64,000 nucleotides of DNA from Gemmatimonadota bacterium (GCA_031372565.1 JANMLN010000201.1:22094-86093), one strand, 5' to 3'. Positions 45,836 through 64,000 are shown, counted from the first letter of the stretch. The notes: generated from the letters alone by a model not told the origin. Program-made: numbers and translations.

Positions 45836-46255
45836 TCACGGCACCAGCGTCAACACCCGCCCCTTCCGGTCCCGCACCGCCCCGAAGTGCCGCCGGTCCG
45901 TCGTGAGGATCGCGCGCGCGCCGAGCCGCTCCGCCATCGCGAGCACGCACGCGTCCACGTAGCCAAGCGGATGGTCCACGTACTTGCGCATGATGTCGAC
46001 GCATCGAAACCGGTCGCTGTCCGTGAGTGCTTCCACCACGAAGTCGTTGCGCCGTATCCCCTGCACAAAGTCGATCTCGGCCAGCGGACTCACACGCGTC
46101 TGCAGGAGGTAGCACAGCTCCGGCAGCACCGCATCGCAGATGACCACGTCGGCCCCGTGGTGCATCCACCAGGCGAGCACGCGCTCGTGCCAGACGTCCG
46201 ACGCGTTGACCAGGGCGAACAGCGGCCCCGTATCGGCGACGACGATCCGGCTCAC
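45836..46255 (-). CDS. vapC: PIN-domain toxin (VapC-like)
   Basis: VADTG.L.A, E, LGYVDA, ILTTDRRHF; ATGA overlap with antitoxin. Confidence 0.9.
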   Translation of the reverse strand: MSRIVVADTGPLFALVNASDVWHERVLAWWMHHGADVVICDAVLPELCYLLQTRVSPLAEIDFVQGIRRNDFVVEALTDSDRFRCVDIMRKYVDHPLGYVDACVLAMAERLGARAILTTDRRHFGAVRDRKGRVLTLVP

Positions 46256-46479
46256 TCGTGCGGATGCGCCCAGAGCAGTTCGTCGACGCGCTCCGAGACG
46301 TCCGTCTCACCCGTGCGGTACTTGCCGGCGATGCTCGGAACGGCCGACGGTGCGGCCCGCAGCACATAGGCCGCCGCAGCCTCCCGCACCACCTGCGCGA
46401 CGCTGACCCGCCGCTGCTTGGCCACGCGCGCGAGCGCGGCGAGGAGCGCTTCGTCGAGGAAGAGAGAGGTTCGCTTCAT
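46252..46479 (-). CDS. vapB: Ribbon-helix-helix (CopG-like) antitoxin
   Basis: MKRTSLFLDE.LL..L...AK....S.A.VVREA...Y; C-terminal DVSERVDELL; directly upstream of the PIN gene. Confidence 0.85.
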   Translation of the reverse strand: MKRTSLFLDEALLAALARVAKQRRVSVAQVVREAAAAYVLRAAPSAVPSIAGKYRTGETDVSERVDELLWAHPHE

Positions 46480-46481
46480 AT

Positions 46482-46516
46482 GCATACATCATATAGTGCA
46501 TGTATGCCTGTGTCCA
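46482..46516 (-). promoter_or_regulatory. Sigma70-like promoter TGGACA-17-TATGAT overlapped by inverted repeat GCATACAT-N10-ATGTATGC
   Basis: -35 at 46511-46516, -10 at 46488-46493, ATG 8 nt downstream. Confidence 0.7.
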
Positions 46517-49704: not shown

Positions 49705-50414
49705 GGGGCCGCGACCAGGTCGGCCACGCGCTCAGCGAGACTCGCGGCGAGGGCGGGACTGAAGCTGGCCGCGGGATCGCTCGTCACCGCGCCCATCCAC
49801 ACGAGGGATGCCCCGCGCGCGTCGATGAGCGCGAGCTTGAGGACCGCGCGTCCGGCCCCCTTCGGGCCCGCGAACAGCACCTCGTAGGGAATCAGCACGT
49901 AGCGAGATTCGGTGCCCACCGCGATCAGGCTGCGCATGTTGCCGGCGAGCGGCTCCGGCAGCTGTTGCCGCACATCGAGACGCGGATCGCGCAGCGGCGC
50001 CGACGCGACGTCGAACACATCGATGCCATACGGTCCGTTGGCCTTCATGCGCCGCGCCAACACCTTGGGCCCCTGCCACTGCTTCGCGGTGCGCCGCGCC
50101 GTGAGCGCGAACTCGATCTCGTCGTCCAACCGCGCGAGGAAGGCCGTCGGATCGCCAGCCTTGCCCACGAAGCCCAGCGAGTCGGCGGGGTTGAGGTACT
50201 GGGCCGGAAGCACGGCGAGCGGGCGCGACGCGAACGGGCCAAGCGGCCGGCCGTTGTCGATGGCGGCGGTGTCCCCCGGAGCGGCGGCGGGGTTGAGCGG
50301 CCGCTGTGCGGCGGCGGGCGGCTTGGACGCGCATCCCGCGATGGCCACACTCGCGAGGAGTGCGACGCACCGTGCTGCATGGCGTGAACCGGGCGAGCCG
50401 GACAGAGAGGGCAC
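49701..50414 (-). CDS. Hypothetical lipoprotein
   Basis: Lipobox IAGC; TATCTT hexamer 6 nt upstream of the GTG. Confidence 0.7.
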   Translation of the reverse strand: MPSLSGSPGSRHAARCVALLASVAIAGCASKPPAAAQRPLNPAAAPGDTAAIDNGRPLGPFASRPLAVLPAQYLNPADSLGFVGKAGDPTAFLARLDDEIEFALTARRTAKQWQGPKVLARRMKANGPYGIDVFDVASAPLRDPRLDVRQQLPEPLAGNMRSLIAVGTESRYVLIPYEVLFAGPKGAGRAVLKLALIDARGASLVWMGAVTSDPAASFSPALAASLAERVADLVAAP

Positions 50415-50454
50415 GGGCGAAAGATAGCGGGGGCGCGAGCGACGGCTACGTTAC

Positions 50455-50799
50455 CAGCGTGCTGAAAAAGTACGGTGAGACGATGAGACGGCCTGACGCA
50501 GCGACGAGCCGGTGAGCGTCCCACCGTCGGAGGACCGTCGGTGCTGCCGTGCGGAGGCCGGCGGGACACGCGTCCGTGGCGCGCCCTCACCCGGTCGGCA
50601 CCAAGCGGCGGAGCCGGATCAGATTCTAGGCGGCGCTCGTGAAGCCGAAGATGAAGCTCACCGTCTCGCGGCCCCGGTGGTGGAGTTTGCGCAGTGGCCC
50701 CACGCACGTCGCCCAGCCGAAGGCCTGCTCCACGAGCTTCCGCTTCCATTGACTGACCGCGTAGCCCGGGTGCCGCGTCGTCCGTCCATCGACGCGCGA
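50455..50799 (-). mobile_element. Remnant of an IS5-like insertion sequence (3' end of transposase plus probable terminal repeat)
   Basis: Transposase-like C-terminal peptide plus CAGCGTGCTGAAAAAG at 50455-50470, resembling ends of this IS group (recalled, not searched). Confidence 0.65.
50587..50799 (-). pseudogene. Truncated DDE transposase fragment with internal stop
   Basis: SRVDGRTTRHPGYAVSQWKRKLVEQAFGW...LRKLHHRG...FTSAA*NLIRLRRL; TAG at 50626-50628 replaces the Tyr of AAYNL. Confidence 0.8.
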
Positions 50800-51123
50800 T
50801 AGGAAATTCAATCGGGGTCGGTGGAGTCTGGGGCGCGGGCCGTGCCCCGGCTCGGGCGGGCCCGCGTCGAGGGCGGGCTCCGCGCGCCAGCGTGGGTGGC
50901 GGGTGCCGCGCGGCTGCGGAGGTGGGTGCGGATCTGGTCGCTCACCGACGTCTGGATCAGGAGCTGTGCAGCGCGGCGTTCCGGAAATCACCGATGAAGT
51001 GCGCGAAGTTGCGCGGATTGCAGCGGAATGCGGCGGCGGTGCTCGCCAATCGAGCCGAACGCTGATCTCAGCCAAGCTCGGGGTTGTGTCATCGAAGGCG
51101 TGCGTGACGCATGCCGGCCGATA

Positions 51124-53844
51124 TCACCGCACCGCCCCCGCCAGCTTCGCCCGCACCTCGGCGGCCCAGTTCGTGATCTGCACCAGCTCCACCTTGCCAC
51201 CGGTCGCCGCCGAGACCGGCAGACGCAAGAGCAGGAAGCGCTGCGCATCGGGCGACGCGTCGTAGAACAGCGAGAGCTCATTCGACGCATAGCCGTTCGT
51301 ATTGAACAACGGCGTCTGCGTGCCGAGCTTGAACGTTGCATCAGGCAGCACCGCCGCGCTCACGAGCATCCCGGCACCGTCGAGGTAGAACAACTCGCGA
51401 CCGTTGCGCGACCAGAGTGGGGCGAGCCCGCCCGCCTGCGACAGCTGCCACCGCCCAGCGTTCACGTCGGGGTACGGCCGGACATACACTTCGTACCGCC
51501 CCGATTCATTCGACGCATACGCAAGCCACTTCCCATCGGGCGACAAGGCGGGCCCGATCTCCTGATAAGTGGGCGACGCCACGAGCGGCACCGCGGTGTC
51601 GCGGCCGCGCTGCGCTTGCACGATGTCCCGCGAACCCGGCGCAGTGAGGCGGACCAGAAACGTGGTGCTCTCGGGGGTGACCACCACCTCGTTGAGGCCC
51701 CGGGCGAGGCGCACGACGGTGTCCACCACCCCTGTGCCATCGGCGGGTTTGCGAAACACGAACCCGCGTCGCCCGCTGCTCCCGCTCGTGAACAGCAGTG
51801 AACGCCCATCGGGCGACCACACCGGATTGGCGTTGCCGCCGCCGAACGTGACCCGGGTGTTCGTGAACGGCGCGCGGTCCAGTTGCTTGACCCAGATATC
51901 TGCCACGACGGCACCGCTGCGAAGCACCATGACGGCCAGCTGCCGTCCATCGGGTGACAGCGCGAGCGTTCGGCCGTTCTCAAAGGCGGTGCCCAGGCGC
52001 CAGCCGGTGTCCACTGGAGTCGCCGTCCCGGATCGACTGACCCACACGGGCATCGCGTCGCTAAACACGGAGAGTATCCCATTCCCCGGCACGTACAACG
52101 CCATTCCCGACGCCGACACCACCATGTCGGCATTCCCCGGCGTGCCGCGCACACCTGTGAGTACGGCGACCGGCGTCCGAGTGAACGACAACGTCTTCAC
52201 GTCGAACGGCGCGGCATACACCTGTCCGTCGCGTGCGGCATAGGCCACCACGCCACCGGCAAGCCACCAGGCATCGAGCGCGTCTTCGGCGAGCCGTGTG
52301 GGTTTGCTCGTCCGCAGATCGACCGCAAGCAACGCCGAGCCATTGCACCCCGCTTCGCACATCATGAACAGCGCCGAGCGCCCGCCCGGGAGTGCCGACA
52401 CGTTGCGCACGGTGCGACCGCCCGTGTCCGCGGCCAGGATAACCCGCGAGGGACCGCCATTCCTCGAGACCGCGCGGAGCCCGTTGTCCTGATGGACATA
52501 CAGGACGGTATCGGTCTCCAGCCACGCTAAGCTGGTGTTCGCTGCTCTGAGTGAGTCGGCCAGCGCGGTCGGCGACCCACCCGCCCGCGGGATCGTGTAC
52601 AGCTTCCGGTCCCGTCCACCGGCATACGCCAGCCACTGACCGTCGGGGGAGAAGGTCGGAGCCGTTGGCTGCCCGCTGGTGCCAGGGATGACGGTCGCCG
52701 TGACTTCATCGCGCCGCTTGAGATACAGTTGCGTGGTCTCGCCCCGTCCGTGCGTGAAGACGATGGCCGAGCCATCGGGCGCAATATCCATGGTCCGCCC
52801 GATCGTGCCAAGGTTACTCGTCGCGAGACTGTCGCTCAGCACAATGCGGTGGCGCGACACCTCGGCTGGTGGCGCCGGCTTGAGCCAGCCCCAGAGCGCG
52901 ACTGCCGCTGTCGCTGTGGTCACGAGCAGTGCGGCCATCGTGAGGCGTTGTGCGCGCGGTGATTGCGCGGGGGTACCTGCGGTGGCGCTGGTCGCGGCGT
53001 AGGTGGCGCCACTGTTGGTGGACAACGCCGTCGCGAACTCGGCGGCGCTGGCAAAGCGATCGGCGGGCAGCTTGGCGAGGGCCGTGAGCACCGCGACTTC
53101 GATGTGAGGCGGCACCGTCTTGCGAACGACCGACAACCGTTCGGGTTCGCTGCTGATGACCTTGGCGACGATCGCCTGCACGCTGCTGCCGGTGAACGGC
53201 GCATCACCGGCGAGCATTTCGTACGTCACCGCGCCGAGCGCATAGACGTCACTGCGCGCATCGATGGTGCGCTCTCCCATCGCCTGCTCGGGACTCATGT
53301 ACTGCGGCGTGCCGAGACTCAATCCGGTTTGCGTCATGCGCTGTCCACCGGCCGTCTGCACGGCGAGCGCAATGCCGAAGTCGGCCACGAGCGCACTCCC
53401 ATCGTGCAGGAGAATGTTCTCCGGCTTGATGTCGCGATGAATCACGTTCTGGCGATGCGCGTAGTCGAGCGCACTCGCCACTTCGCGCGCGATGCGCACG
53501 GCGTCGGCGATAGGAAGCTGGCGTTCGCGCTCCAGCCGTGCGCGCAACGTTTCGCCCGTCACTAGAGGCATCACGTAGTACAGCAGCCCATCCGCCTCGC
53601 CGCTGTCGAGCAGCGGCAGAATGTGCGGATGCTGCAATCGCGCCGTGGTGCGGATTTCGGTCAGAAACCGCTCGCCGCCGAGCGCGGCACCCAAGTCGGG
53701 GTGCAGCACCTTGATCGCGACGTCGCGCTCGTGCTTGATGTCGTGCGCGAGATACACGGTGGCCATGCCACCAGCGCCGAGTTCGCGGTCGAGGCGGTAG
53801 CGGTCGGCGAGCGCGGTGGTGAGGCGTTCGATCGGAGACGTCAT
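51124..53844 (-). CDS. Membrane Ser/Thr protein kinase with PD40/TolB-like beta-propeller ectodomain (copy 1)
   Basis: LGAGGMATVY, VAIK, HRDIKPEN, DFG, GTPQYMSPEQ; one TM; repeated SPDG..LA. Confidence 0.95.
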   Translation of the reverse strand: MTSPIERLTTALADRYRLDRELGAGGMATVYLAHDIKHERDVAIKVLHPDLGAALGGERFLTEIRTTARLQHPHILPLLDSGEADGLLYYVMPLVTGETLRARLERERQLPIADAVRIAREVASALDYAHRQNVIHRDIKPENILLHDGSALVADFGIALAVQTAGGQRMTQTGLSLGTPQYMSPEQAMGERTIDARSDVYALGAVTYEMLAGDAPFTGSSVQAIVAKVISSEPERLSVVRKTVPPHIEVAVLTALAKLPADRFASAAEFATALSTNSGATYAATSATAGTPAQSPRAQRLTMAALLVTTATAAVALWGWLKPAPPAEVSRHRIVLSDSLATSNLGTIGRTMDIAPDGSAIVFTHGRGETTQLYLKRRDEVTATVIPGTSGQPTAPTFSPDGQWLAYAGGRDRKLYTIPRAGGSPTALADSLRAANTSLAWLETDTVLYVHQDNGLRAVSRNGGPSRVILAADTGGRTVRNVSALPGGRSALFMMCEAGCNGSALLAVDLRTSKPTRLAEDALDAWWLAGGVVAYAARDGQVYAAPFDVKTLSFTRTPVAVLTGVRGTPGNADMVVSASGMALYVPGNGILSVFSDAMPVWVSRSGTATPVDTGWRLGTAFENGRTLALSPDGRQLAVMVLRSGAVVADIWVKQLDRAPFTNTRVTFGGGNANPVWSPDGRSLLFTSGSSGRRGFVFRKPADGTGVVDTVVRLARGLNEVVVTPESTTFLVRLTAPGSRDIVQAQRGRDTAVPLVASPTYQEIGPALSPDGKWLAYASNESGRYEVYVRPYPDVNAGRWQLSQAGGLAPLWSRNGRELFYLDGAGMLVSAAVLPDATFKLGTQTPLFNTNGYASNELSLFYDASPDAQRFLLLRLPVSAATGGKVELVQITNWAAEVRAKLAGAVR

Positions 53845-54203
53845 GTCTCTGCGGCCACGCCCAAGGCCCGCGCTGCCTGATCGAGCCGCTTATCCAGGCT
53901 CCAGAGCCGCGTGTCATCAAGCACCGCCGACGCCAGGAGGTGGATGTCGATGTACCCGAGGCCTCGGCACATCAGGCGCCGCGCATCGATAAACGCGAGC
54001 GTCTCCTCGGGCGTGCTCACCGTGCTCGCCGGGAGCTTGCCGAGCAGCTCGAGCACCACCGCGCGTTGGCGGAGGGTCCCGCAGGCCAGCTCGCCCACCA
54101 CAAACGGATGGGAGCGCACATCACCGCGCTCGAGGAGCGCCGCGAGTCGCGCGTTGTCGTGCCGCAGGTGGTCGATCCAGACCGACGTGTCCACCAGAAT
54201 CAC
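53841..54203 (-). CDS. vapC: PIN-domain toxin (VapC-like)
   Basis: ILVDTSVWIDHLR, HPFVVGELACG, GLGYID.HLLAS, LWSLDKRL; stop overlaps kinase ATG. Confidence 0.92.
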   Translation of the reverse strand: MILVDTSVWIDHLRHDNARLAALLERGDVRSHPFVVGELACGTLRQRAVVLELLGKLPASTVSTPEETLAFIDARRLMCRGLGYIDIHLLASAVLDDTRLWSLDKRLDQAARALGVAAET

Positions 54204-54415
54204 GGCGCCGTCGTACCCCGAGGCGGACGTGACCGGCGGCGCGGGGGCGCCGCGGCCTGTGGATCTTTCCCACCGAGCGCCGCGAGCCGGCGTGCACTCT
54301 CCCGGGCAATCAAGGCACGGAGTCCCTCATGCACGAGCGCGGTTTTCTCCTCGATGCCCGTCAGGCGGCGCGCCTCGTTCAGCACGGCGTCATCCAGATT
54401 GAGTGTCGTTTTCAT
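54200..54415 (-). CDS. vapB: VapB-family antitoxin
   Basis: MKTTLNLDD..L.EA.RLTG..EKTALV.EGL.ALI.RE.ARRLA.LGG. Confidence 0.9.
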   Translation of the reverse strand: MKTTLNLDDAVLNEARRLTGIEEKTALVHEGLRALIARESARRLAALGGKDPQAAAPPRRRSRPPRGTTAP

Positions 54416-54451
54416 ATGTATCAATATGGGTGTTGGATACATACGTCACAA
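54415..54451 (-). promoter_or_regulatory. Candidate promoter TTGTGA-17-CATATT with inverted repeat TATGTATC-N13-GATACATA
   Basis: -10 at 54423-54428, 7 nt from the ATG; IR arms 54415-54422 and 54436-54443. Confidence 0.6.
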
Positions 54452-54474
54452 GCGGAGCGCCAGCGGGGTCTCAC

Positions 54475-54524
54475 GGGGTCGGAGTGGTAGAACGGGGCGC
54501 TTTCAACGACTCCGACCCCTTGAA
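54475..54524. repeat. Inverted repeat GGGGTCGGAGT...ACTCCGACCCC (second REP-like family)
   Basis: Arms 54475-54485 and 54509-54519; the motif recurs at 58001-58064. Confidence 0.7.
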
Positions 54525-54537
54525 CGAACCCCGTCGT

Positions 54538-57198
54538 TCACTTCGCCGCTCCATCCACGGCGGTTTTCAGACGCGTAACAAAGTCCGGGATGAAACGCAG
54601 ATACCGCGAGTCGGTTTGCTCCGGGCCTTGGGCGTAAACGATGCCACCGTCCCACGATGCGCGATTGGACCACCCGGGCGTGTCGAGAAAGCGGGGATCG
54701 CGCGCCCACACGCTCGGCGCGCCGACGAGCGCGCCGGTCGTGCGATCAAAGCGCGCGCTGTACCACGTCACGCCCGATCGGTAGAGCAACTCGGTCGGCG
54801 AGAGCCAGACCGGCTCCACGCCGCCGACCGCCACCTGCTGCTGTTGGGTACCGCGCGGATACGGCCCGACGAGCAGCTGATTGGTCTGCGACGTATGCCA
54901 AGCGAGTCGTGTCCCGTCGGGAGAGCGCGTCATGAAGATGGCGTCCTTCGACAGGGTGTCGATGCGTACCGACCGTCCGGCCATCATGAGACGAAAGACG
55001 GTCGGGGTGCGACTGTCGCGCGCCAGGATCGTCGAGTCATCGCTGAAGTCGAGGGCATCGAGGGCATCCTGTTCGCGGACGCGCCGCATGAGCGTGTCCG
55101 GGGCGCCCGTCGCGTCAGGAGAACCGATCAGCAGCGCCGCGCCGGCGTCGTCTTCCACGCGCACCACGATCCGATCGCTCCGCGGGTTCCAGAGCGGCAT
55201 CCGGATGATCGCCGCTCGGAGCCAGACCTGCATCAGTCCACTACGCAGATCGTAAATGCGAAGCTCGTCACCCTCGGGCGTGGCCACTACGGCGGCCAGT
55301 CGCTTCCCGTCGCGGGAGAGATCGAAACGCAGAAACGGACCACGTTCCATGGACAGCGGGACCGCATCCGCCCCTACGCGACGCACCACCATCGCCGCCA
55401 GCCGCTCAGCACCAGCGGGTGCGTACCCCAGCAGTCCGTTCGTCGACATTTCGAATTGCGCGATGCCATTGGCATCGCGGCTCACGCCGCGCACCAGCGA
55501 AACCGCCCGGCCCAGCTGACGTGTGCGCGCGTCATACGACGCCCCACGGAGCGTGCCGTCGAGCGAGACGTACATCATGTAGGCGCCGTCGATGAGAAGG
55601 AACGCTGTCCCCGACACCGCTCGCGCCGTTTTGCCTTCTTCACGCGTCGTCGTGATGGGCAGCACCTCACCGGACGCCGGATCGATCAGCGTGGCCGACT
55701 CGTTGTAGCTGCACAGCACTTTGCGTTCGGCGGCAAGCCACTGACCCCATGGGCAGCGCGTCCCCGAAATCTTTCGATCCTCTACCACGCCCAGTTCCGG
55801 ATCGAGCCCGGTCAGTCGGTAGCCGTCGCCCGCGAGCGCGAACAGACGCGTATCGGAGATCCATTCCAGCGTGGGCGGCGGTGCGCTCTGCATCAGTTGG
55901 CGAGGCTCGCCGCCACCGATAGGCAGGATCATGATGTGCGTCCTGGTCGCGAACGCGAGGCGCTGCCCGTCCGGAGAGATGCGCGGACTGCGGCCACCCG
56001 ATGTGCCGGTGATCGGCGCCGCCGACGCATCGACGAGACTGCGGCGCCACAGCATCGTGGAGTCGCCGCGCTGCACGGCGTACACCACAAAGTCGCCGCC
56101 AGCCGAGACCGACAGTTGGCGACTCGACGAACCGAATCCGGTGGCGATCGTGCCCGCCACGCGTGCCATGGGCGCGCTGTCCGGAAGCGCCGCATCGAAG
56201 ATCGCGGTCGAGGCTACGGCGGGCACTCGCGTGAGCGCCCGTCCGGCTGCCGCAAGCGACACCACGGTGGTGACGGCCAGCACGGCGGCGACCACCCGTA
56301 AACCCCGGCCGCGATCCGTTGAAGCCGGTGCCAGCGGCGCGTCTCCCGCGTGGCGGTCCAACGCGGTCGTGTTCGCGATGAGCGCCGCCGCGAACTCCGT
56401 CGTACTGGCAAAGCGGTCAGCCGGCAGCTTGCTCAGCGCGCGGAGCACCGCCTGCTCTGCGCCGACCGGCACCGTATCGCGCACCGTGCGGATTGACGGC
56501 GGTTTCTCCGTGAGCACGCGCGCCACGATGGCCTGCACACTCGAGCCAGTGAACGGCGCGTCGCCGGTGAGCATTTCGTACGTCACCGCGCCGAGCGCGT
56601 ATACATCGCTGCGCGCATCGATGGTGCGTTCGCCCATCGCCTGCTCGGGGCTCATGTACTGCGGTGTGCCGAGGCTCAGGCCGGTCTGCGTCAGGCGCGC
56701 ACCGCCGGCACTCTGCACCGCGAGCGCGATGCCGAAATCGGCCACGAGCGCACTGCCATCGTGCAAGAGAATGTTCTCCGGCTTGATGTCGCGGTGAATG
56801 ACGTTCTGGCGATGCGCGTAGTCGAGCGCGCTCGCCACTTCGCGTGCAATACGAACGGCGTCATTGATCGGCAGCTGCCTCTCGCGTTCCAACCGCGCGC
56901 GCAGCGTTTCGCCGGTCACGAGCGGCATGACGTAGTACAGCAACCCGTCCGCTTCACCACTGTCGAGCAACGGCAGAATGTGCGGATGCTGCAACCGCGC
57001 GGTGGTGCGGATTTCGCTCAGGAACCGCTCGCCGCCGAGTGCCGCGCCCAAGTCGGGGTGCAGGACCTTGATGGCGACGTCACGCTCGTGCTTGAGGTCG
57101 TGCGCGAGATACACGGTGGCCATGCCACCGGCGCCGAGTTCGCGGTCAAGGCGGTAGCGGCCCTCGAGGGCGGTGGTCAGGCGTGTCAGCACGCTCAT
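54538..57198 (-). CDS. Membrane Ser/Thr protein kinase with beta-propeller ectodomain (copy 2)
   Basis: Kinase motifs as copy 1; one TM; ISPDG, LSRDG, SPDG repeats. Confidence 0.95.
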   Translation of the reverse strand: MSVLTRLTTALEGRYRLDRELGAGGMATVYLAHDLKHERDVAIKVLHPDLGAALGGERFLSEIRTTARLQHPHILPLLDSGEADGLLYYVMPLVTGETLRARLERERQLPINDAVRIAREVASALDYAHRQNVIHRDIKPENILLHDGSALVADFGIALAVQSAGGARLTQTGLSLGTPQYMSPEQAMGERTIDARSDVYALGAVTYEMLTGDAPFTGSSVQAIVARVLTEKPPSIRTVRDTVPVGAEQAVLRALSKLPADRFASTTEFAAALIANTTALDRHAGDAPLAPASTDRGRGLRVVAAVLAVTTVVSLAAAGRALTRVPAVASTAIFDAALPDSAPMARVAGTIATGFGSSSRQLSVSAGGDFVVYAVQRGDSTMLWRRSLVDASAAPITGTSGGRSPRISPDGQRLAFATRTHIMILPIGGGEPRQLMQSAPPPTLEWISDTRLFALAGDGYRLTGLDPELGVVEDRKISGTRCPWGQWLAAERKVLCSYNESATLIDPASGEVLPITTTREEGKTARAVSGTAFLLIDGAYMMYVSLDGTLRGASYDARTRQLGRAVSLVRGVSRDANGIAQFEMSTNGLLGYAPAGAERLAAMVVRRVGADAVPLSMERGPFLRFDLSRDGKRLAAVVATPEGDELRIYDLRSGLMQVWLRAAIIRMPLWNPRSDRIVVRVEDDAGAALLIGSPDATGAPDTLMRRVREQDALDALDFSDDSTILARDSRTPTVFRLMMAGRSVRIDTLSKDAIFMTRSPDGTRLAWHTSQTNQLLVGPYPRGTQQQQVAVGGVEPVWLSPTELLYRSGVTWYSARFDRTTGALVGAPSVWARDPRFLDTPGWSNRASWDGGIVYAQGPEQTDSRYLRFIPDFVTRLKTAVDGAAK

Positions 57199-57223
57199 GG
57201 CGTAGCCGCCAGCACCGACGGGG

Positions 57224-57667
57224 TCACGGTTCGGCCGTCAACGGATCGACGACCTCGACGAAGGGGAAGCGGGCAAAATCGGTATCGCGCGTACAGATGC
57301 GGCGAATTCCGTGCTCGCGCATGAGCACCGCCGTCTCCGCGTCGTGCCACAAGTTGCCGCTGATGATCGGAACCTCCGACATGACTTCCGCCAGCACCGC
57401 GGCATGACGATCGGTCGGCGTGAGCATCGACAACCCCGGAGACTGCTGCAGGGCCGTGAGAAACTCCCCGGCGGCGTGACCGGTCCACGGCTTACGCAAG
57501 ACGCGGGGATGCGTGACAACGCGGAGAAACTCGTAGCAGTTGCCCCAGGTGAGATACCACGCGCCATGCTGCGCGCGCCAGCGTTCGAGGAGCAGGCGAC
57601 ACCGCGCGTGTTCCGGTGCGCTGACGTCGGCCGCGTACACCAGCACATTGGTGTCCACCACGAACAT
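57224..57667 (-). CDS. vapC: PIN-domain toxin (VapC-like)
   Basis: VVDTNVLVYA, EFLRVVTHPR, GNL.HDA..A.LMREHG...ICTRD.DF.RF. Confidence 0.92.
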   Translation of the reverse strand: MFVVDTNVLVYAADVSAPEHARCRLLLERWRAQHGAWYLTWGNCYEFLRVVTHPRVLRKPWTGHAAGEFLTALQQSPGLSMLTPTDRHAAVLAEVMSEVPIISGNLWHDAETAVLMREHGIRRICTRDTDFARFPFVEVVDPLTAEP

Positions 57668-57895
57668 CTATCGCTCCTCCATCACGCGATAGAGCGCCTC
57701 GCGATCGGCCACATCCACCAACGCCCCACCAGAATCGAAGCTCGGCAGCGGCACCAGTTCCGGCGCGGCCGACCGACGCTGCAGGAGCTGCCGCAACGCC
57801 ATCTCGACGAGCTCCGACATCGTGCGGCCGCTCCGCGCGGCCTCGCGGCGGAGCCGGTCCATCACCGTATCGTCGATGTTCAGCGTGGTCTTCAT
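57668..57895 (-). CDS. vapB: Ribbon-helix-helix antitoxin
   Basis: MKTTLNIDD.VM..LR.EAAR.GRTMSELVE.ALR..L; C-terminal LP.F..G...VDV.DR.ALY. Confidence 0.9.
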   Translation of the reverse strand: MKTTLNIDDTVMDRLRREAARSGRTMSELVEMALRQLLQRRSAAPELVPLPSFDSGGALVDVADREALYRVMEER

Positions 57896-57902
57896 ATGGC
57901 TA

Positions 57903-57931
57903 ACCATACGGGGCACACGGAGCTATGTCAA
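57903..57931 (-). promoter_or_regulatory. Sigma70 promoter TTGACA-17-TATGGT, 7 nt upstream of the antitoxin ATG
   Basis: Consensus -35 at 57926-57931, -10 at 57903-57908; IR TATGG-TTAG-CCATA over the -10/start. Confidence 0.8.
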
Positions 57932-58000
57932 AGTGAAGGGACGACAGTCGAGCCGATTCGCCCGCGTTCAACGCCGCTGACCGCATGAACTCACGTCCAA

Positions 58001-58064
58001 GGACGCTGACCCCTTGAGCCGAAAGGACTCTGACCCCTTCAACTCTCTGACCCCTTCAACTCTC
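58001..58064. repeat. Three direct copies of CTGACCCCTT, two of them in a 17-bp tandem
   Basis: GGACGCTGACCCCTTGA; GACTCTGACCCCTTCAACT; CTCTGACCCCTTCAACTCTC. Confidence 0.75.
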
Positions 58065-58080
58065 GGACAGCTGAAGAACC

Positions 58081-60753
58081 TTACCGCGTGAGCTTCGCCC
58101 GCAACTCCGTAAACCAATTCTCCGCCATCACCACCGGCGGCACCTTCGGCGCTGGCGTCGCGGTGATCATGAGGAAGCGATCGTCACCCGGCGCGACGTC
58201 GTACTGTTGTCGATTCGCCGCGTGTTTGTAGCCGTTGACCGAAAACAGCGCGCGCGGCGTGCCGAACGTGAACGACGGCCCAGGCAGCACCGGCACGACC
58301 GTGAGCGATCCGGCGGACACGAAGAACAGCTCTTTGCCGCTCCGCGAAAAGCGTGGCTCTTCACCACCACCACGAGAGACCTGACGTCGTGTCGTGCCAT
58401 CGGGAATCGAGGTGACGTACACCTCGCGCGCGCCACCTTCGTCGGAGACATAGGCCAGCCACCGTCCATCGGGAGACAGCGAGAAGACCATAGGCTGCGA
58501 AAGATCTGCCAGGATACGCCGCGGCGTCGTATCGCCGTCCACGCGACGCACGTAGACGCCGTAGCGGTCGTCCGGCTCGTTGGTCCGGTACACCATCCAG
58601 GCATTGTTCGCTGCGATCTCGACCTCCCACACACCGAGCGGAGCCTGCAGCCACGAGCGGACGGCCGACCCATCGCCTTCGGCCCGCATGATTCGCCAGG
58701 TCGCGCTCGAATCAGAAGGACGATTCACAAACGCCAGCGACTTGCCACCGTTGAACCAGAGGGGACGCCACTGCGTCCCACTTCCGCCGCGCACGCGTTG
58801 CGCCGGAGCATCGGCCGTTCGCAACCAGAGATCGATCGCTGTGCCAGCGGTGTTCCCCGCGTTCGTGCTCACGGCGATCGCCCGACCATCGGGCGCGATG
58901 GCGGGACCCGATAGCGGCGCCTTCCACGACGAATCGGCCGAGAGCACACGTCCGGTTCGGTCCACCCAGTGTAGCTGCTCCGCTTGATCGGCCCGCGGGT
59001 CCACCCGGTACAGCAATTGACCAGACGTAGCCACGCCGTAGAGTTTCGTCACGGGCCCATCGAGCACCGTCACCGACGCGCCAGTCGTTGTGAGGGCCTT
59101 CGCATCGAATGGCGTGGCCGTGACGCGGCGGTTCGATTCTATGGCCAGCAGGTGCCCCGTGTTGCTGTACTCCACCGCCACGAGATTCGTCAACAGCTCC
59201 GTCTTCTTGCCGCTTTCCAAATCCATCACCGCGCCGTAGGTGCGGAACGAACAGTTGTTCTGGCACCCGTACGCGAGCAGGCCACGCGAACCGGGGAGCG
59301 GGACCAGCCCTTGCACCGAGGTGGTCGTTCTCGCTTCGCCAAATTGGTAGCGCCGTATCTCGCGGCCGTCGGCATCGATCCGAACGCCTGTGTTGATATT
59401 GGCGAGGTACATGATGGTGCCGTCGTGCAGCCACACGGCCAATCGATTGACTCCCTCGATCCGCGCGACCAAGGTGATGGGCGCTCCACCGGATAGCGAC
59501 ATCTTCTTGAGGGCCCCGTCCATGGTGAAGAAGCCCAGCGTTTGCCCGTCCGCTGACAGGAAGGGCGAGACCCCATTCTCCGTGCCGGGAATCAGTTGGG
59601 CACGCTCTGCGTCCCGCGCTTTGCGATACAATTTCCACTGACCATCGAGCGAATCGGCGAACACCAACGTGGAACCATCGAGCGCCATGGCCAGCTGCGT
59701 GCGATAAGCGTTTAGCTGCGCCGAGGAAACGATGGCATGCTGCCATAACACCACCTGTTGCCGTGACGTGGGTGCCTCAGATGTACGGCGCCACAACAGC
59801 GAGGCGCCGAATCCGACGGCCACGCCAATCACACCAAGCGCCACCGCGAGCCCCCGTGCACGCGAGGTCGCCGCGTGACGCACTACCGTTGTCGCCGCCA
59901 TGCGCGCGCCGGTGCCACCGCGCACCGCCTCAGCGAACTCGGCGGTCGTCGCAAAGCGATCAGCGGGAATCTTTTCGAGTCCTTGCAACACCGCCGCTTC
60001 CACATGCGGCGGCACCGCGGGCCGCTGTGTCACCAACGCGCGCGGCGCTTCTGACATCAGCCGCGCCACGATGGCCTGCACCGTGGGTCCGGTAAACGGC
60101 GGTTCACCCGCCAGCATTTCATAGGTCACCGCGGCCAGCGCGTACACGTCCGATCGTGCATCGATGGTGCGTTCGCCCGTGGCCTGCTCGGGACTCATGT
60201 ACTGCGGCGTGCCAAGGCTCAATCCGGTCTGCGTCATGCGCTGACCACCGGCGCTTTGCACCGCGAGGGCAATCCCAAAATCCGCGATGAGCGCCGAGCC
60301 ATCGTGCAGGAGGATGTTGTCCGGCTTGATGTCGCGATGAATCACGCCTTGCCGGTGCGCGTAATCGAGCGCACTGGCCACTTCGCGTGCGATGCGCACC
60401 GCGTCGGCGATGGGCAGCTGCTTCTCGCGCTCCATGCGGGCACGCAGCGTTTCACCCGTCACCAGCGGCATGACGTAGTACAGCAGGCCGTCGGCCTCGC
60501 CGCTGTCGAGCAGCGGCAGAATATGCGGATGCTGCAACCGCGCGGTGGTGCGGATTTCGCTCAGAAAGCGCTCGCCGCCGAGCGCTGCGCCTAGGTCGGG
60601 ATGCAGCACCTTGATCGCGACATCGCGCTCGTGCTTCAGGTCGTGCGCGAGATACACGGTCGCCATGCCACCGGCGCCGAGTTCGCGGATAACGCGATAG
60701 CGGTCGGCGAGGGCGGCGGTGAGACGCGCCAGAGCCGGGGTGGCGTTACTCAC
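58081..60753 (-). CDS. Membrane Ser/Thr protein kinase with beta-propeller ectodomain (copy 3)
   Basis: Probable GTG 60753 overlapping the upstream stop by 8 nt; kinase motifs (HRDIKPDN, DFG); one TM; SPDG repeats. Confidence 0.93.
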   Translation of the reverse strand: MSNATPALARLTAALADRYRVIRELGAGGMATVYLAHDLKHERDVAIKVLHPDLGAALGGERFLSEIRTTARLQHPHILPLLDSGEADGLLYYVMPLVTGETLRARMEREKQLPIADAVRIAREVASALDYAHRQGVIHRDIKPDNILLHDGSALIADFGIALAVQSAGGQRMTQTGLSLGTPQYMSPEQATGERTIDARSDVYALAAVTYEMLAGEPPFTGPTVQAIVARLMSEAPRALVTQRPAVPPHVEAAVLQGLEKIPADRFATTAEFAEAVRGGTGARMAATTVVRHAATSRARGLAVALGVIGVAVGFGASLLWRRTSEAPTSRQQVVLWQHAIVSSAQLNAYRTQLAMALDGSTLVFADSLDGQWKLYRKARDAERAQLIPGTENGVSPFLSADGQTLGFFTMDGALKKMSLSGGAPITLVARIEGVNRLAVWLHDGTIMYLANINTGVRIDADGREIRRYQFGEARTTTSVQGLVPLPGSRGLLAYGCQNNCSFRTYGAVMDLESGKKTELLTNLVAVEYSNTGHLLAIESNRRVTATPFDAKALTTTGASVTVLDGPVTKLYGVATSGQLLYRVDPRADQAEQLHWVDRTGRVLSADSSWKAPLSGPAIAPDGRAIAVSTNAGNTAGTAIDLWLRTADAPAQRVRGGSGTQWRPLWFNGGKSLAFVNRPSDSSATWRIMRAEGDGSAVRSWLQAPLGVWEVEIAANNAWMVYRTNEPDDRYGVYVRRVDGDTTPRRILADLSQPMVFSLSPDGRWLAYVSDEGGAREVYVTSIPDGTTRRQVSRGGGEEPRFSRSGKELFFVSAGSLTVVPVLPGPSFTFGTPRALFSVNGYKHAANRQQYDVAPGDDRFLMITATPAPKVPPVVMAENWFTELRAKLTR

Positions 60754-61081
60754 CGCCGAGCGCCTCGATGTCAGCGAGATCCTTGAGGCGGCCGCTTGCC
60801 GGCTTGTTGCGGATGAACGCGGCCTTCCCGATGAACGGTACGAGCACGTCATCGAAGTAGGCCTCGATCCGATCTGGCCATGCCTCGTCGAACGTCACGC
60901 CGCTGATTCCCGTGAGGATATCAATGCGCCACGGAGGGAGTCCGAACTGCGCGACGGTGTCTGGACGCGTGAAGTCGGCTGGCGTGATCGCCAGTGACTC
61001 GAGTGGCGCACCAAAGGCGGCCAGTGCCGACCAGACACGCGCGGCGTTCTCCGACGGCAGATCGCGGAAGTCCTCGACCAT
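60746..61081 (-). pseudogene. Nucleotidyltransferase-family (DUF6036-like) protein with apparent in-frame internal deletion
   Basis: ENAARV..AL..FGAP, G.PP.RIDILT.I.GV.FDEAW, NK.ASGR.KDLAD present; DFRDL is joined directly to PSEN without the usual G...RxTxDxD segment. Confidence 0.65.
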
Positions 61082-61086
61082 ATCCG

Positions 61087-61302
61087 CTACCCTTGTGGTG
61101 CCTGACGCGACACGATGCAGATGGGAATCGCGCTGCGCTCATAGTCAGGGAGCGACTGCTGTGTGCGCGCCCACAGCTCGGCACTGAGCACACCAACCAA
61201 TGCGACACGCTCGGATGGCGTGCCACCGACACGGCTGTCCCCCGCTTCGGAACTCCGGAGCGGCACCAGTCGAACAGTCATGTGGCGGCGGGCGGTGGTC
61301 AT
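61087..61302 (-). CDS. Small hypothetical protein, probable partner/antitoxin of the nucleotidyltransferase
   Basis: 71 aa, TPSERV.LV..LS..LW; 5 nt upstream of the NTase; TAGATT 6 nt before the ATG. Confidence 0.6.
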   Translation of the reverse strand: MTTARRHMTVRLVPLRSSEAGDSRVGGTPSERVALVGVLSAELWARTQQSLPDYERSAIPICIVSRQAPQG

Positions 61303-61382
61303 GCGTGGAATCTACCGTCGGACTGGGCGCGAGAAGAGAGGAGAGTAGGCGGTGGTGAGGCTGGACAGGGCAAGCGTCGCCG

Positions 61383-64000
61383 CTACCTCTGCGCCTGCTG
61401 CGCCCGCCCAATCTCCGCGGCGAAATTGCGCACCACCACCACCCGCGGGAAACGCGTCTGGCGCACGAACACCACCGTGCCGTCGGGGCCCACATCGAAC
61501 GGGGCGTGCACGGCATCGTCGCTCGCGAACTCGGCGCCAAGCAGTTCCCGCGTGCTTCCCACCTTCACGCCCGCCGCGAGATCGACCATCGTGGCCACCA
61601 ACCCGGTTGGCGTGTAGTAGTAGAGGCTCCGGCCGTCGCGGGCCCACACCGGCGCGAGGCCGCCCGCGCGGTCGATGCGCACCTGCGCACCGGGGCCGGG
61701 GAAGGGTGCGACGTACACATGCCGCGGCGCATCGGCGCTGAACGCGATCCATCGCCCATCGGGCGAGAAGCGGGCACCGGTCACCGTGCCACCAGCATCG
61801 GTGTTCACATGGGGCAACGTGCGCACCGTGCTGTCACCACGTGTCCACCAGAGCAACCCTTGCGCGAGTTCGACGGCGTCGTTCTGGACACGGCCCAGCA
61901 GCGTCTTCCCGTCGGGCGCGAGCACCACTTCGTACACCGCGCGCCTCCCTCGCAGAAGCATGGTATCGGCACCGCTGCCATCCGCCGTGCGCAGCATCGC
62001 ACTCCGCAACGAGTCGGTGAGCGACCGGAACAGGATGCTCCGACCGTCGGGGGTCCACTCGGCGCGATCGCGTCCGGCTTGTTGGTCCTGTCCCGCCAGC
62101 GGCGAGAAGAATCCGTTGGACTGGTCGAGAACACTGAGCGAGCGGCGACGCGTCACACTGTCACTGATGGTCACCACGAGGCGACGCCCGTCGGGCGAAA
62201 ACCGCGGATGTTCGAAGGCCAGCGTATCGGGTAGTGCCGAGGAGAGTCGGCCCTGTGCATCACGATATGTCAGCAGCCCGGCGCTGCTCTCATTGACGTA
62301 CACCAGGTCGCCCGACGGAGACATCACCGCGTAGCCGAGTCCGAACCCCGTCGGATTCATCTTCACGCCGTCGCCCATCCGTTCGCCGGGGCCGGTGACG
62401 GTGAGCGCGCGTGCATCGAAGGGCGCCGCGAAGAGGTCCCCGGTACGATTCAGGTAGACCAGATGCCCGCGGGCGACGCCAACCACCGCGTAGGCGTCGG
62501 TTCCCACGTCGGTGACCTTCCCATCGGCCAGTGACAACGCGAGCACGCGAACCGAGTCGCCTGTGCGGTGGTTGGCCGCGAAGAGCACCACGTTCGATGC
62601 CTCAAGCGCGACGGGCCACCGTGCCGCAGCGCCCGCCGGCGCCGCGGCGAGTGCGCGGGGCACCCCGCCCGTTTCCTTGACCGCGAACAGCGAGTCGGAC
62701 TGCACGGCGTATACGATCTCGCCACCCGACGTCCACGCGATCCCCTGCGGCTGCACGGGCAGCGTAGCGAGGCGGATCGGATTGCCGCCCGTCACGGCGA
62801 CCTTGAAGAGCTGACGCGCGACCGCGAAGGCAATCCAGCGACCATCCGGGGAGAACGTCGGCTCGATGCCGTTGATGCTCCCGGCAATGGGCGTCATCTC
62901 CAGCTGATCGAGCTGGCGGACGAACAGCTGCGCTCCGCGGTTGGCGTCGGCTCGCCATAGCACCAACGTGCGGCCATCGGGGGAGAGCGCCAAGAGCCGG
63001 TTCTGGGTGACGTACGTGCTCTTCCCCTCGATGGTGAAGCGCGTCACGACCTCGGCGGACGATGCCCCGTTGCCACTTCGTCGCATCACCATCCACGTCG
63101 CGCCGACGGCGGTGGCCGCGATCGCGACGGCGCCCATCAGCGTGATTGCCAACGAACGCGCGCGGATACCGCGCGCCGGCGCCGTCGTCGCACCGCTGCT
63201 CCGCGCGCCACTAGTGGTTGCGAGCGCCGTCGCGAATTCCGCCGCACTCGCCTGCCGATCGGCCGGCAGCTTCGCCAGCGCCGTAAGCACGGCCTGCTCC
63301 ACGTTGGCCGGAATCGAATTCCGCACGCGCGACGGCGGCTCGGCCTCGCTCGACAACACACGCGCCACAATCGCCTGCACGCTCGCACCCGTGAACGGCG
63401 GCGCACCGGTGAGCATCTCGTACACCACTGTACCGAGCGCGTAGATGTCACTGCGCGCATCGATGGTGCGTTCGCCCATCGCCTGCTCGGGGCTCATGTA
63501 CTGCGGCGTGCCGAGCGAGAGCCCCGTTTGCGTCATGCGCGCACCGCCGGCGCTCTGCACGGCGAGCGCGATGCCGAAGTCGGCGACGAGCGCACTGCCA
63601 TCGTGCAGGAGAATGTTCTCCGGCTTGATGTCGCGATGAATCACGTTCTGCCGGTGTGCGTAATCGAGTGCACTCGCGACTTCGCGCGCGATGCGCACGG
63701 CGTCGGCGATGGGCAACTGGCGCTCGGCCTCCAACCGCGCGCGCAGCGTTTCGCCAGTCACGAGCGGCATGACGTAGTACAGCAGCCCGTCGGCGTCGCC
63801 GCTGTCGAGCAGGGGCAAAATGTGCGGATGCTGCAAGCGCGCGGTCGTGCGGATCTCGGAGAGAAAACGTTCGCCGCCCAGCGCTGCACCAAGATCCGGA
63901 TGCAGCACTTTGATGGCGACATCACGATCGTGCTTGAGATCGTGCGCGAGGTACACGGTGGCCATGCCGCCGGCGCCGAGTTCGCGCTCGATGGTGTAGC
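61383..64000 (-). CDS. Membrane Ser/Thr protein kinase with beta-propeller ectodomain (copy 4; 5' end beyond the window)
   Basis: Frame open to 64000 (YTIERELGAGGMATVY...); kinase motifs; one TM; SPDG repeats. Confidence 0.95.
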   Translation of the reverse strand, partial: YTIERELGAGGMATVYLAHDLKHDRDVAIKVLHPDLGAALGGERFLSEIRTTARLQHPHILPLLDSGDADGLLYYVMPLVTGETLRARLEAERQLPIADAVRIAREVASALDYAHRQNVIHRDIKPENILLHDGSALVADFGIALAVQSAGGARMTQTGLSLGTPQYMSPEQAMGERTIDARSDIYALGTVVYEMLTGAPPFTGASVQAIVARVLSSEAEPPSRVRNSIPANVEQAVLTALAKLPADRQASAAEFATALATTSGARSSGATTAPARGIRARSLAITLMGAVAIAATAVGATWMVMRRSGNGASSAEVVTRFTIEGKSTYVTQNRLLALSPDGRTLVLWRADANRGAQLFVRQLDQLEMTPIAGSINGIEPTFSPDGRWIAFAVARQLFKVAVTGGNPIRLATLPVQPQGIAWTSGGEIVYAVQSDSLFAVKETGGVPRALAAAPAGAAARWPVALEASNVVLFAANHRTGDSVRVLALSLADGKVTDVGTDAYAVVGVARGHLVYLNRTGDLFAAPFDARALTVTGPGERMGDGVKMNPTGFGLGYAVMSPSGDLVYVNESSAGLLTYRDAQGRLSSALPDTLAFEHPRFSPDGRRLVVTISDSVTRRRSLSVLDQSNGFFSPLAGQDQQAGRDRAEWTPDGRSILFRSLTDSLRSAMLRTADGSGADTMLLRGRRAVYEVVLAPDGKTLLGRVQNDAVELAQGLLWWTRGDSTVRTLPHVNTDAGGTVTGARFSPDGRWIAFSADAPRHVYVAPFPGPGAQVRIDRAGGLAPVWARDGRSLYYYTPTGLVATMVDLAAGVKVGSTRELLGAEFASDDAVHAPFDVGPDGTVVFVRQTRFPRVVVVRNFAAEIGRAQQAQR

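Follow-up and report, generated by a model that had tools for sequence, protein, structure and literature searches.

What is the function of toxin genes placed directly in front of receptor kinases? The question is raised by a 64,000-nucleotide stretch of DNA from a Gemmatimonadota bacterium (GCA_031372565.1, JANMLN010000201.1:22094-86093; here called the window), which is the terminal part of contig C101 in a source genome of 4.44 Mb and 201 contigs (G000). From position 51,124 to its end, genes for receptor Ser/Thr kinases alternate with small two-gene modules of the toxin-antitoxin (TA) kind. The initial annotation described a tandem array of antitoxin-toxin-kinase units, serving either as a stress or defence array or as an addiction-stabilised receptor repertoire. 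That interpretation is borne out in part: TA genes are enriched before kinases, but a stable unit found no support in the analysis. We favour, with a probability of roughly 0.58, a recombination-driven cassette array of receptor Ser/Thr kinases in which the TA pairs look like interchangeable passengers, not dedicated partners.

The alternation itself is as first described. Four genes of Hanks kinase-transmembrane (TM)-propeller architecture are interspersed with two VapBC pairs and one MenAT1-like nucleotidyltransferase (NTase) pair, and the junctions are exact: an ATGA overlap at 53841-53844, a 25-nt gap at 57199-57223 and an 8-nt overlap at 60746-60753. All array genes lie on the minus strand. 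The contig stops where the window stops, with loss of the 5′ end of K4. The features are as follows, where RHH denotes ribbon-helix-helix and REP repetitive extragenic palindrome.

51124..53844, minus strand: K1, Hanks Ser/Thr kinase with TM segment and tandem β-propeller sensor, 906 residues; Pfam Pkinase and PD40
53841..54203, minus strand: vapC1, PIN toxin, 120 residues; PF01850, E 1.5e-10; its stop overlaps the K1 start (ATGA)
54200..54415, minus strand: vapB1, antitoxin, 71 residues from the ATG at 54415; PF09957, E 1.8e-16
54415..54443, no strand: inverted repeat seen in the sequence, 8-nt arms and 13-nt spacer, reaching up to the vapB1 start
54444..54537, minus strand: hairpin and REP-like motif directly 3′ of the K2 stop, no poly-U tail
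54538..57198, minus strand: K2, receptor kinase, 886 residues; Pkinase, PD40
57224..57667, minus strand: vapC2, PIN toxin, 147 residues, 25 nt upstream of K2; PF01850, and TIGR00028 above cut-off
57668..57895, minus strand: vapB2, RHH antitoxin, 75 residues; PF01402, PF09957
57895..57931, minus strand: predicted vapBC2 promoter, TTGACA-17-TATGGT; a 5-nt inverted repeat spans the -10 box and start; 5′ homology limit of the cassette
57990..58080, minus strand: repeated REP-like hairpin motifs 3′ of the K3 stop
58081..60753, minus strand: K3, receptor kinase, 890 residues from an inferred GTG start; Pkinase, PD40
60746..61081, minus strand: MenT1-like (DUF6036-like) NTase toxin, disarmed: its catalytic segment is lost through an in-frame deletion of 37 codons
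61087..61302, minus strand: partner of the NTase, probable antitoxin, 71 residues
61383..>64000, minus strand: K4, receptor kinase, first ~15 residues cut by the contig end; Pkinase, PD40

By their sequences, K1-K4 are Hanks-type receptor Ser/Thr kinases: each matches Pkinase and PD40, has intact VAIK, HRD and DFG motifs, and contains a single hydrophobic segment near residue 300 (weakest in K1, with a mean hydropathy of 1.69), predicted to be the one TM helix of a protein with an extracytoplasmic sensor. The K1 sensor model, built from a 52-row alignment, is all-β with a predicted local distance difference test (pLDDT) score of 90; its best PDB matches are tandem propellers, at TM-scores of only ~0.3. 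Full-length K1 modelled without an alignment gave a pLDDT of 35. The topology is that of Mycobacterium tuberculosis PknD, a receptor Ser/Thr kinase with a β-propeller sensor; unlike PknD, the K1-K4 family has a tandem propeller of ~570 residues and occurs as dozens of arrayed paralogues. In the species collection, all 76 of the closest kinase loci belong to Gemmatimonadota, and a metagenome scan with the K3 sensor gave no match.

Identity is very unevenly distributed along these proteins. Residues 41-200, in the N-terminal kinase part (the head), are 90-100% identical among K1-K4, residues 201-280 are 55-75% identical, and the sensors mostly 10-40%. Differences at fourfold sites amount to 0.19-0.39 in the head versus 0.51-0.64 in the sensor, with saturation at 0.61. 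This pattern indicates that the first ~200 kinase codons have been homogenised across members, and that the periplasmic propeller sensors are old and distinct. K4 and its orthologue at locus L085 have a DNA identity of 82-89% in the first 900 nt and 95-100% beyond; for K2 and its L082 orthologue the values are 71-89% first and 89-94% after. In 4/11 orthologous pairs, marginally so in two of them, the sensor matches better than the head, which inverts the usual pattern of conservation. Judged by these identity profiles, heads have been exchanged among genes and genomes, and orthologous sensors bear non-orthologous heads.

The same kinase head is also found at L085:4448-7360, joined to another output, a region resembling an FGE-sulfatase and an α/β-hydrolase (labels from reading the sequence).

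The position of the toxin genes relative to the heads was assessed across the whole source genome. Genes were called with an in-house hexamer model, and a gene was counted as adjacent if it reads within 150 nt into a kinase start. The toxin-type set (n=34) comprised 18/18 PIN matches, the 8/11 AAA_14 matches over cut-off and 8/8 NTase matches; ParE, Phd and HTH_3 matches were left out of the count. Control accessory genes (n=37) were glyoxalase, DinB and DUF4440 matches, one glyoxalase row having been dropped because it was a second domain. Ten of the 34 toxin-type genes (PIN 3, AAA_14 3, NTase 4) read into a kinase start, compared with 27/3652 of all genes and 0/37 controls (Fisher p 3e-4 for toxin-type versus control); without the three toxins of the window the figure is 7/31 (p 3e-3). 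The two Pfam families PIN and AAA_14 alone give 6/26, which is the cleaner figure because the NTase profile was seeded partly with kinase-adjacent genes. TA genes are therefore found before kinases well above the rate of other accessory genes, and not at a rate no higher than theirs, as would have spoken against the initial annotation.

The enrichment follows the head. Graded by head identity to K1, a toxin-type gene lies upstream of 0/21 heads below 55%, then 1/22, 3/6 and, at 80% or above, 6/9; it precedes 9/15 heads at least 70% identical to K1 and 1/43 more distant ones (p 4e-6). We did not accept the gene overlaps as evidence of coupling: a 4-nt overlap occurs in 18.8% of 2669 same-strand neighbours in this genome, and 50.6% of same-strand neighbours lie within 30 nt. 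What is above chance is which genes abut kinases, not that they overlap.

Among the adjacent genes, the AAA_14/DUF4143 ATPases (PADLOC candidate PDC-S01) behave in a TA-cassette-like manner at kinase heads, although they are single genes:

L061:2171-3343, L063:8685-9860 and L064:4059-5309: AAA_14/DUF4143 genes at kinase heads

Modules and sensors occur in varying combinations. The NTase-head junction with its 8-nt overlap is identical in the window, L085 and L282/L283, with three different sensors downstream; the context of the K3 start is likewise the same in L085, L282 and L283. After a K4-type sensor comes the NTase pair in the window and L085 (where the sensor is 97% identical), an inverted VapBC and a Phd-PIN pair in G349, and a Phd-PIN pair in L282/L283; a DUF4143 gene precedes it in G463 and a DUF6036 gene in G129. 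Of six further loci or locus pairs with a K4-type sensor, five show another module context. The L082 kinase, whose sensor is 92.6% identical to that of K2, is followed directly by another kinase. The K2-vapB1 and K3-vapB2 junctions are not assembly artefacts, because contigs from two further same-study runs bridge them; the toxin-head junctions of K1 and K2 are not among the bridging contig pieces listed. A contig from another study (run X5) joins the K1 end to a kinase head, and depth in this run is ~5-25 over the four sensors and ~1-6 over the module stretches, a low cover that proves nothing on absence.

The loci examined also contain 12 head stubs of 40-115 residues, none reaching the catalytic loop, which mark lost or half-duplicated kinases. 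On contig C10 of the source genome (100588-106188; L063), a VapBC pair, two NTase pairs, an HTH-NTase pair and an AAA_14/DUF4143 gene are stacked, with kinase stubs of 53 and 63 residues between modules and one full kinase after them. At C140:381-1281 (L068), an 82% DNA copy of vapBC2 precedes a remnant comprising just the final ~60 codons of a propeller sensor, which from its sequence is a kinase lost behind an intact TA pair.

Two samples extend these observations to other genomes. The first, centred on kinases, comprises 76 loci picked as the best K1 matches, and its toxin rate is not a phylum-wide one because of that selection. A co-oriented gene lies directly upstream of 113/152 heads; 60 of these genes are kinase-family by profile and 53 are not. 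Pfam was run on 44/53 of the latter (the other nine being stubs or plainly other proteins) and identified 10 PIN, 5 AAA_14/DUF4143, 2 NTase, 1 NYN and 1 Uma2. Outside the source genome, a toxin-type gene precedes 22/164 heads, made up of 15/77 at 80% identity or above and 7/87 below. The polarity is strong: 34 toxin-type genes read into a head, and three follow a sensor with no head next. Genome G007 has a long kinase array with two TA pairs before kinases, one stub and one inverted pair, and G218 has a kinase flanked by two Phd-PIN pairs, beside queG. The kinase-TA layout thus recurs in other Gemmatimonadota and is lineage-wide.

Could kinases and TA pairs simply share plastic islands, alternating by chance? 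The array does lie at a lineage-specific breakpoint with insertion sequence (IS) remnants. Furthermore, in ten few-contig, well-assembled genomes, some of them seen in earlier results, only 2/74 PIN genes read into one of 75 heads. However, even this exceeds the at most 0.14 expected, and in the same genomes 5/74 PIN genes lie within 1.5 kb of heads, where 0.47 is expected. The absence of control accessory genes next to kinases, the polarity and the restriction to the homogenised subfamily also disagree with chance, which is scarcely probable as a general account; for the source genome, chance alternation is already largely refuted.

The second sample was centred on the toxins. For control we used a further intact VapBC pair of the window, at 45836-46485, which lies between short-chain dehydrogenase and acyl-CoA dehydrogenase genes and sits at the same site in same-genus relatives. 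The 30 best loci each for vapC2, vapC1, the intact NTase and this control PIN were taken from 351 genomes of the family, in which 30, 50, 79 and 35 genomes, respectively, have matches. With source-genome loci excluded, 1/29, 0/29, 0/30 and 1/29 read directly into a kinase; two further weak flags of kinase adjacency in these loci were not confirmed on re-check. Within 1.5 kb of a kinase in any orientation there were 4, 2, 5 and 4, or 15/117, compared with 22/400 random small genes of the source genome (p 0.013) and 0/29 lipoprotein control loci. Module copies next to a kinase share 80-90% identity with those located elsewhere and do not look specialised. The array modules are promiscuous and none is a dedicated kinase partner; the control PIN behaves alike. 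Genome G055 contributes one locus each to the vapC2 and NTase counts, and G012 one lipoprotein control locus and one of the ten synteny loci described below; no conclusion depends on either. A stable antitoxin-toxin-kinase unit is not supported by these results: modules and sensors recombine freely, adjacency is direct in 2/117 loci, one of the three window toxins is disarmed, and kinase arrays without TA modules are common.

Both VapBC pairs of the window have, on sequence, the layout of type II TA systems, with a PIN toxin 3′ of a small RHH/VapB antitoxin in one apparent operon. vapBC2 has a consensus promoter (predicted at 57931-57903) and a conserved inverted repeat; vapBC1 has the inverted repeat only, which is probably the operator of vapB1, and no promoter there passed the scan. 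Homology between vapBC2 copies extends from the -35 box to the vapC stop; the cassette is minimal, its promoter region being kept in seven other copies and the sequence further upstream being unrelated.

The NTase pair calls for a correction. It is present and MenT1-like, but a 111-nt in-frame deletion has removed from the window copy the catalytic motif GxxA..HG..R.T.D.D, which is kept by 29/30 close homologues. The same deleted form is found, with zero differences, on a public-run contig spanning 60652-62228, which is not an independent check because the run may be the source of the assembly. The best PDB match of the family is MenT1 (8an4, E 8.7e-11), and the 71-residue partner lies upstream of the NTase in 30/30 homologous loci. 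For the intact NTase-partner pair of L085, the predicted complex scored 0.81, versus 0.00 for the best of three controls; runs agree in at least 92% of contacts and the partner has a pLDDT of at least 68. The mark applied to such scores is reached by 116/157 solved pairs and 2/215 mismatched pairs. Part of the L085 score may stem from resemblance to the MenA1-MenT1 complex, whose structure is solved. The model suggests that the partner is probably the antitoxin of the NTase, and the deletion in the window also removes much of the predicted interface. The modules therefore resemble VapBC and MenAT1-like systems in gene order, sizes, PIN and RHH domains, a family NTase fold with the R.T.D.D motif, and a small partner predicted to bind; unlike MenAT1, the partner has no family match and the window NTase has no catalytic segment.

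How might such an array be built? Homologous or homology-facilitated (RecA-type) recombination at the conserved head would be the shuffling engine. The head junction would be the sole insertion point that spares genes, because the stop codon of one kinase normally overlaps the start codon of the next. Small TA-type cassettes, consisting of promoter and operator, antitoxin, toxin and nothing more, would insert there and then travel with the head, as homology anchor, to new sensors; the linkage is observed, and this mechanism would account for it. Alternatively, a cassette lying between two heads could be transferred as part of a head-to-head cassette. The TA pairs would be kept mostly for their own sake, through addiction, and could decay, leaving or outlasting short kinase stubs. 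With no terminator after the toxin, transcription from each cassette probably continues into the next kinase and is subject to antitoxin autoregulation; this read-through would be incidental to the layout, not its cause.

Polymorphic toxin cassettes are said to undergo comparable exchange, alongside those belonging to type VI secretion systems (T6SS). We rejected a polymorphic toxin system for this locus: the variable part is a β-propeller, and one and the same sensor can have different, unrelated TA pairs downstream. Unlike in T6SS or polymorphic toxin cassettes, what varies in the array is the periplasmic sensor of a kinase instead of a secreted toxin, and the small genes form self-sufficient TA pairs that lie upstream of the anchor and are no cognate immunity genes. 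The precedent is nevertheless useful: the part of PMC9711863 available to us describes exchange of effector-immunity genes in the Aux1 T6SS of Vibrio cholerae by homology-facilitated illegitimate recombination, where, as in the array, a conserved gene part is the crossover anchor, variable 3′ parts are swapped and remnants accumulate.

Several observations weigh against this scheme. No recombination event was observed directly. The head is conserved as much as or more than the sensor in 7/11 orthologous pairs, and the head similarity is due in part to strong purifying selection acting on the kinase domain. Toxin-centred modules near kinases lay after the sensor or inverted at least as often as before the head, which weakens the head-anchor step outside the close subfamily. 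Toxins lie upstream of 5/18 truncated kinases versus 27/199 full ones, a slight difference. In the source genome, 9/10 head-adjacent toxin-type genes look full length, which fits function equally with selfishness. Finally, the p values overstate the case because the loci are related and clustered.

A functional reading would have the TA cassettes selected as plug-in promoters or stress switches, whereby antitoxin depletion induces the kinase and the kinase may phosphorylate the antitoxin or toxin. The 34 to 3 polarity into heads agrees with this. So does the transcriptional layout: promoter and operator are present at vapBC2 and an operator-like repeat at vapBC1, and the vapBC2 promoter is the sole intergenic sigma-70 consensus on the array coding strand. 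The junction scan found no terminator-like site between a toxin and its kinase, and did not call the hairpin at 54444-54537 a terminator (fold z -2.8 for 54416-54540); kinase-to-kinase junctions mostly overlap. Read-through from toxin to kinase is plausible because the only consensus promoter is that of vapBC2 and the junctions have no terminator-like site, and promoter-bearing TA pairs probably drive the next kinase in this way. Even the disarmed NTase pair retains its upstream region and reading frame. Kinases acting on TA proteins are also on record: PknA and PknK reportedly control VapB and RelK. The accessible portion of PMC11160731 describes kinase control of VapB in M. tuberculosis and does not report TA-acting kinases as co-encoded with their TA targets, unlike those of the array. 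Nevertheless, any module family serves, single AAA_14/DUF4143 genes included, the copies beside kinases are unspecialised, long arrays work without modules, and MenAT1 is reported not to autoregulate (PMC11375011, in part). We regard this reading as unlikely, though deserving of real weight. Its most elaborate form seems to us less likely again: an integrase-free combinatorial system with TA operons as exchangeable regulatory heads, in which recombination at the constant kinase head could wire any TA promoter to any sensor in a receptor-kinase library, and the kinase, once induced, would phosphorylate antitoxin or toxin and thereby link an external signal to growth arrest in a closed loop.

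The array invites comparison with integrons. Sedentary chromosomal integrons of V. cholerae carry promoter-bearing TA cassettes, according to the consulted part of PMC13108822, and the array resembles them in being variable, in its mostly promoterless units and in its interspersed TA pairs bringing their own promoter. It differs in that the array repeat is a coding kinase head and all cargo belongs to one receptor family. An integron array was rejected: there is no attC-like site and no IntI at the array. A scan for R-box-bounded hairpins (attC) found none in 50000-64000 of the window or in five other kinase-TA stretches, and no integrase or attI was found at the array, the region upstream of K4 being missing from the contig. 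The one IntI of the source genome above cut-off is on C195. At C195:34068-35434 (L288) this IntI, over the TIGR02249 cut-off, lies at the contig end; an attI-like box and the beginning of a small gene come after it. The genome-wide attC scan, which produced many chance hits, also picked out attC-like hairpins at C73:880-985 and C125:794-908, on short or terminal contig stretches.

By analogy with these integrons, addiction-type stabilisation of the array is possible: the TA pairs would be kept because they kill cells that lose a head-to-head segment. Each module does lie between direct repeats of ~82% DNA identity over 800 nt, 15/34 head-adjacent toxin-type genes are between two kinases, and the integron case provides the precedent. 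Set against this, one of the three window toxins is disarmed, 19/34 were not scored between two full kinases (some loci being cut short), kinases beside intact modules have been reduced to stubs on C10 and elsewhere, and TA-free arrays persist. Stabilisation as the reason for keeping the pairs is thus distinctly improbable. Passenger status, promoter coupling and repertoire stabilisation are not mutually exclusive.

The initial annotation had also raised a role in stress or defence, and the array might be a set of anti-phage sensor-effector units, with the propeller detecting infection, the kinase signalling and the toxin halting the cell. PADLOC matched the kinase domain to PD-T4-6 models and the adjacent AAA_14/DUF4143 genes to candidate PDC-S01, and the sensors are diverse and move between genera. 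However, the match is limited to the generic kinase domain, for which PknB-type models score equally; the window TA proteins have no PADLOC match, and the sensor-toxin pairing is not conserved. PD-T4-6, MADS and BREX defence kinases were each rejected as identities, since only the kinase domain matches, NCBIfam scores are all below cut-off and there are no partner genes. Beyond generic kinase-domain matches nothing supports defence, and we consider it very unlikely.

Returning to the passenger array, its parts are all of known kinds, and the arrangement appears new within the open-access literature searched: no paper on a kinase-TA array was found there, subscription journals and supplements being outside its scope. 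Here TA modules would have colonised a cassette array that lacks integron sites and in which a protein-coding repeat is probably where recombination takes place, across a little-studied phylum; the locus also suggests a route by which bacteria diversify large receptor-kinase repertoires. Whether chromosomal TA pairs are selfish, stabilising or regulatory is a long-standing question for which the locus provides a natural test: a given sensor can be found with different modules or with none, and one of the modules here is a natural knock-out.

The flanks of the array were traced by synteny. Among the matches listed of ten loci, same-genus or same-family relatives have cstA beside the flanking lipoprotein gene and no array. 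In the source genome cstA is at the end of contig C127, with a queG-like fragment and then a cut Phd-PIN pair after it; C127 shares two short segments with the downstream edge of the window, and a C127-type Phd-PIN reads into a kinase in G218. From the sequence we infer that the other flank of the array is C127 and that its first position is taken by a fourth module. The cut K4 end is overlapped by no contig of the assembly, and the remainder of the C127 PIN gene is absent from the assembly. The downstream island edge in the window comprises:

50626..50811, no strand: IS5 transposase remnant; NF033581, weak
50829..50955, no strand: end of a repeated IS-like element, with copies on 9 other contigs
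50907..51032, no strand: queG-like 3′ fragment; weak label, E 0.0017, on the L086 copy

Two copies of the queG-like 3′ fragment, in direct orientation, flank an NTase TA pair in L227 and L238 and kinases in L086; the fragment also lies beside the G218 kinase-TA block, which comes after queG itself. Its sequence context suggests that it is probably a second homology anchor for small cargo. Its sites are:

window 50907-51032; L227, L238, L086, L286; G000 C127:10077-10262: queG-like fragment

Two kinds of repeat were also noted. Intergenic copies of the REP-like motif are, among the matches listed, almost confined to the kinase array; REP elements were rejected as unit borders, the motif being at only two of three junctions. 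The genome's common REP, with 452 hits, is absent from the array junctions among the matches listed. This abundant palindromic repeat occurs in the window at ~45750, 46620, 48030 and 48740, and is often in frame at gene starts, kinase starts included, where it reads as KQVLRFAQDD-like peptides.

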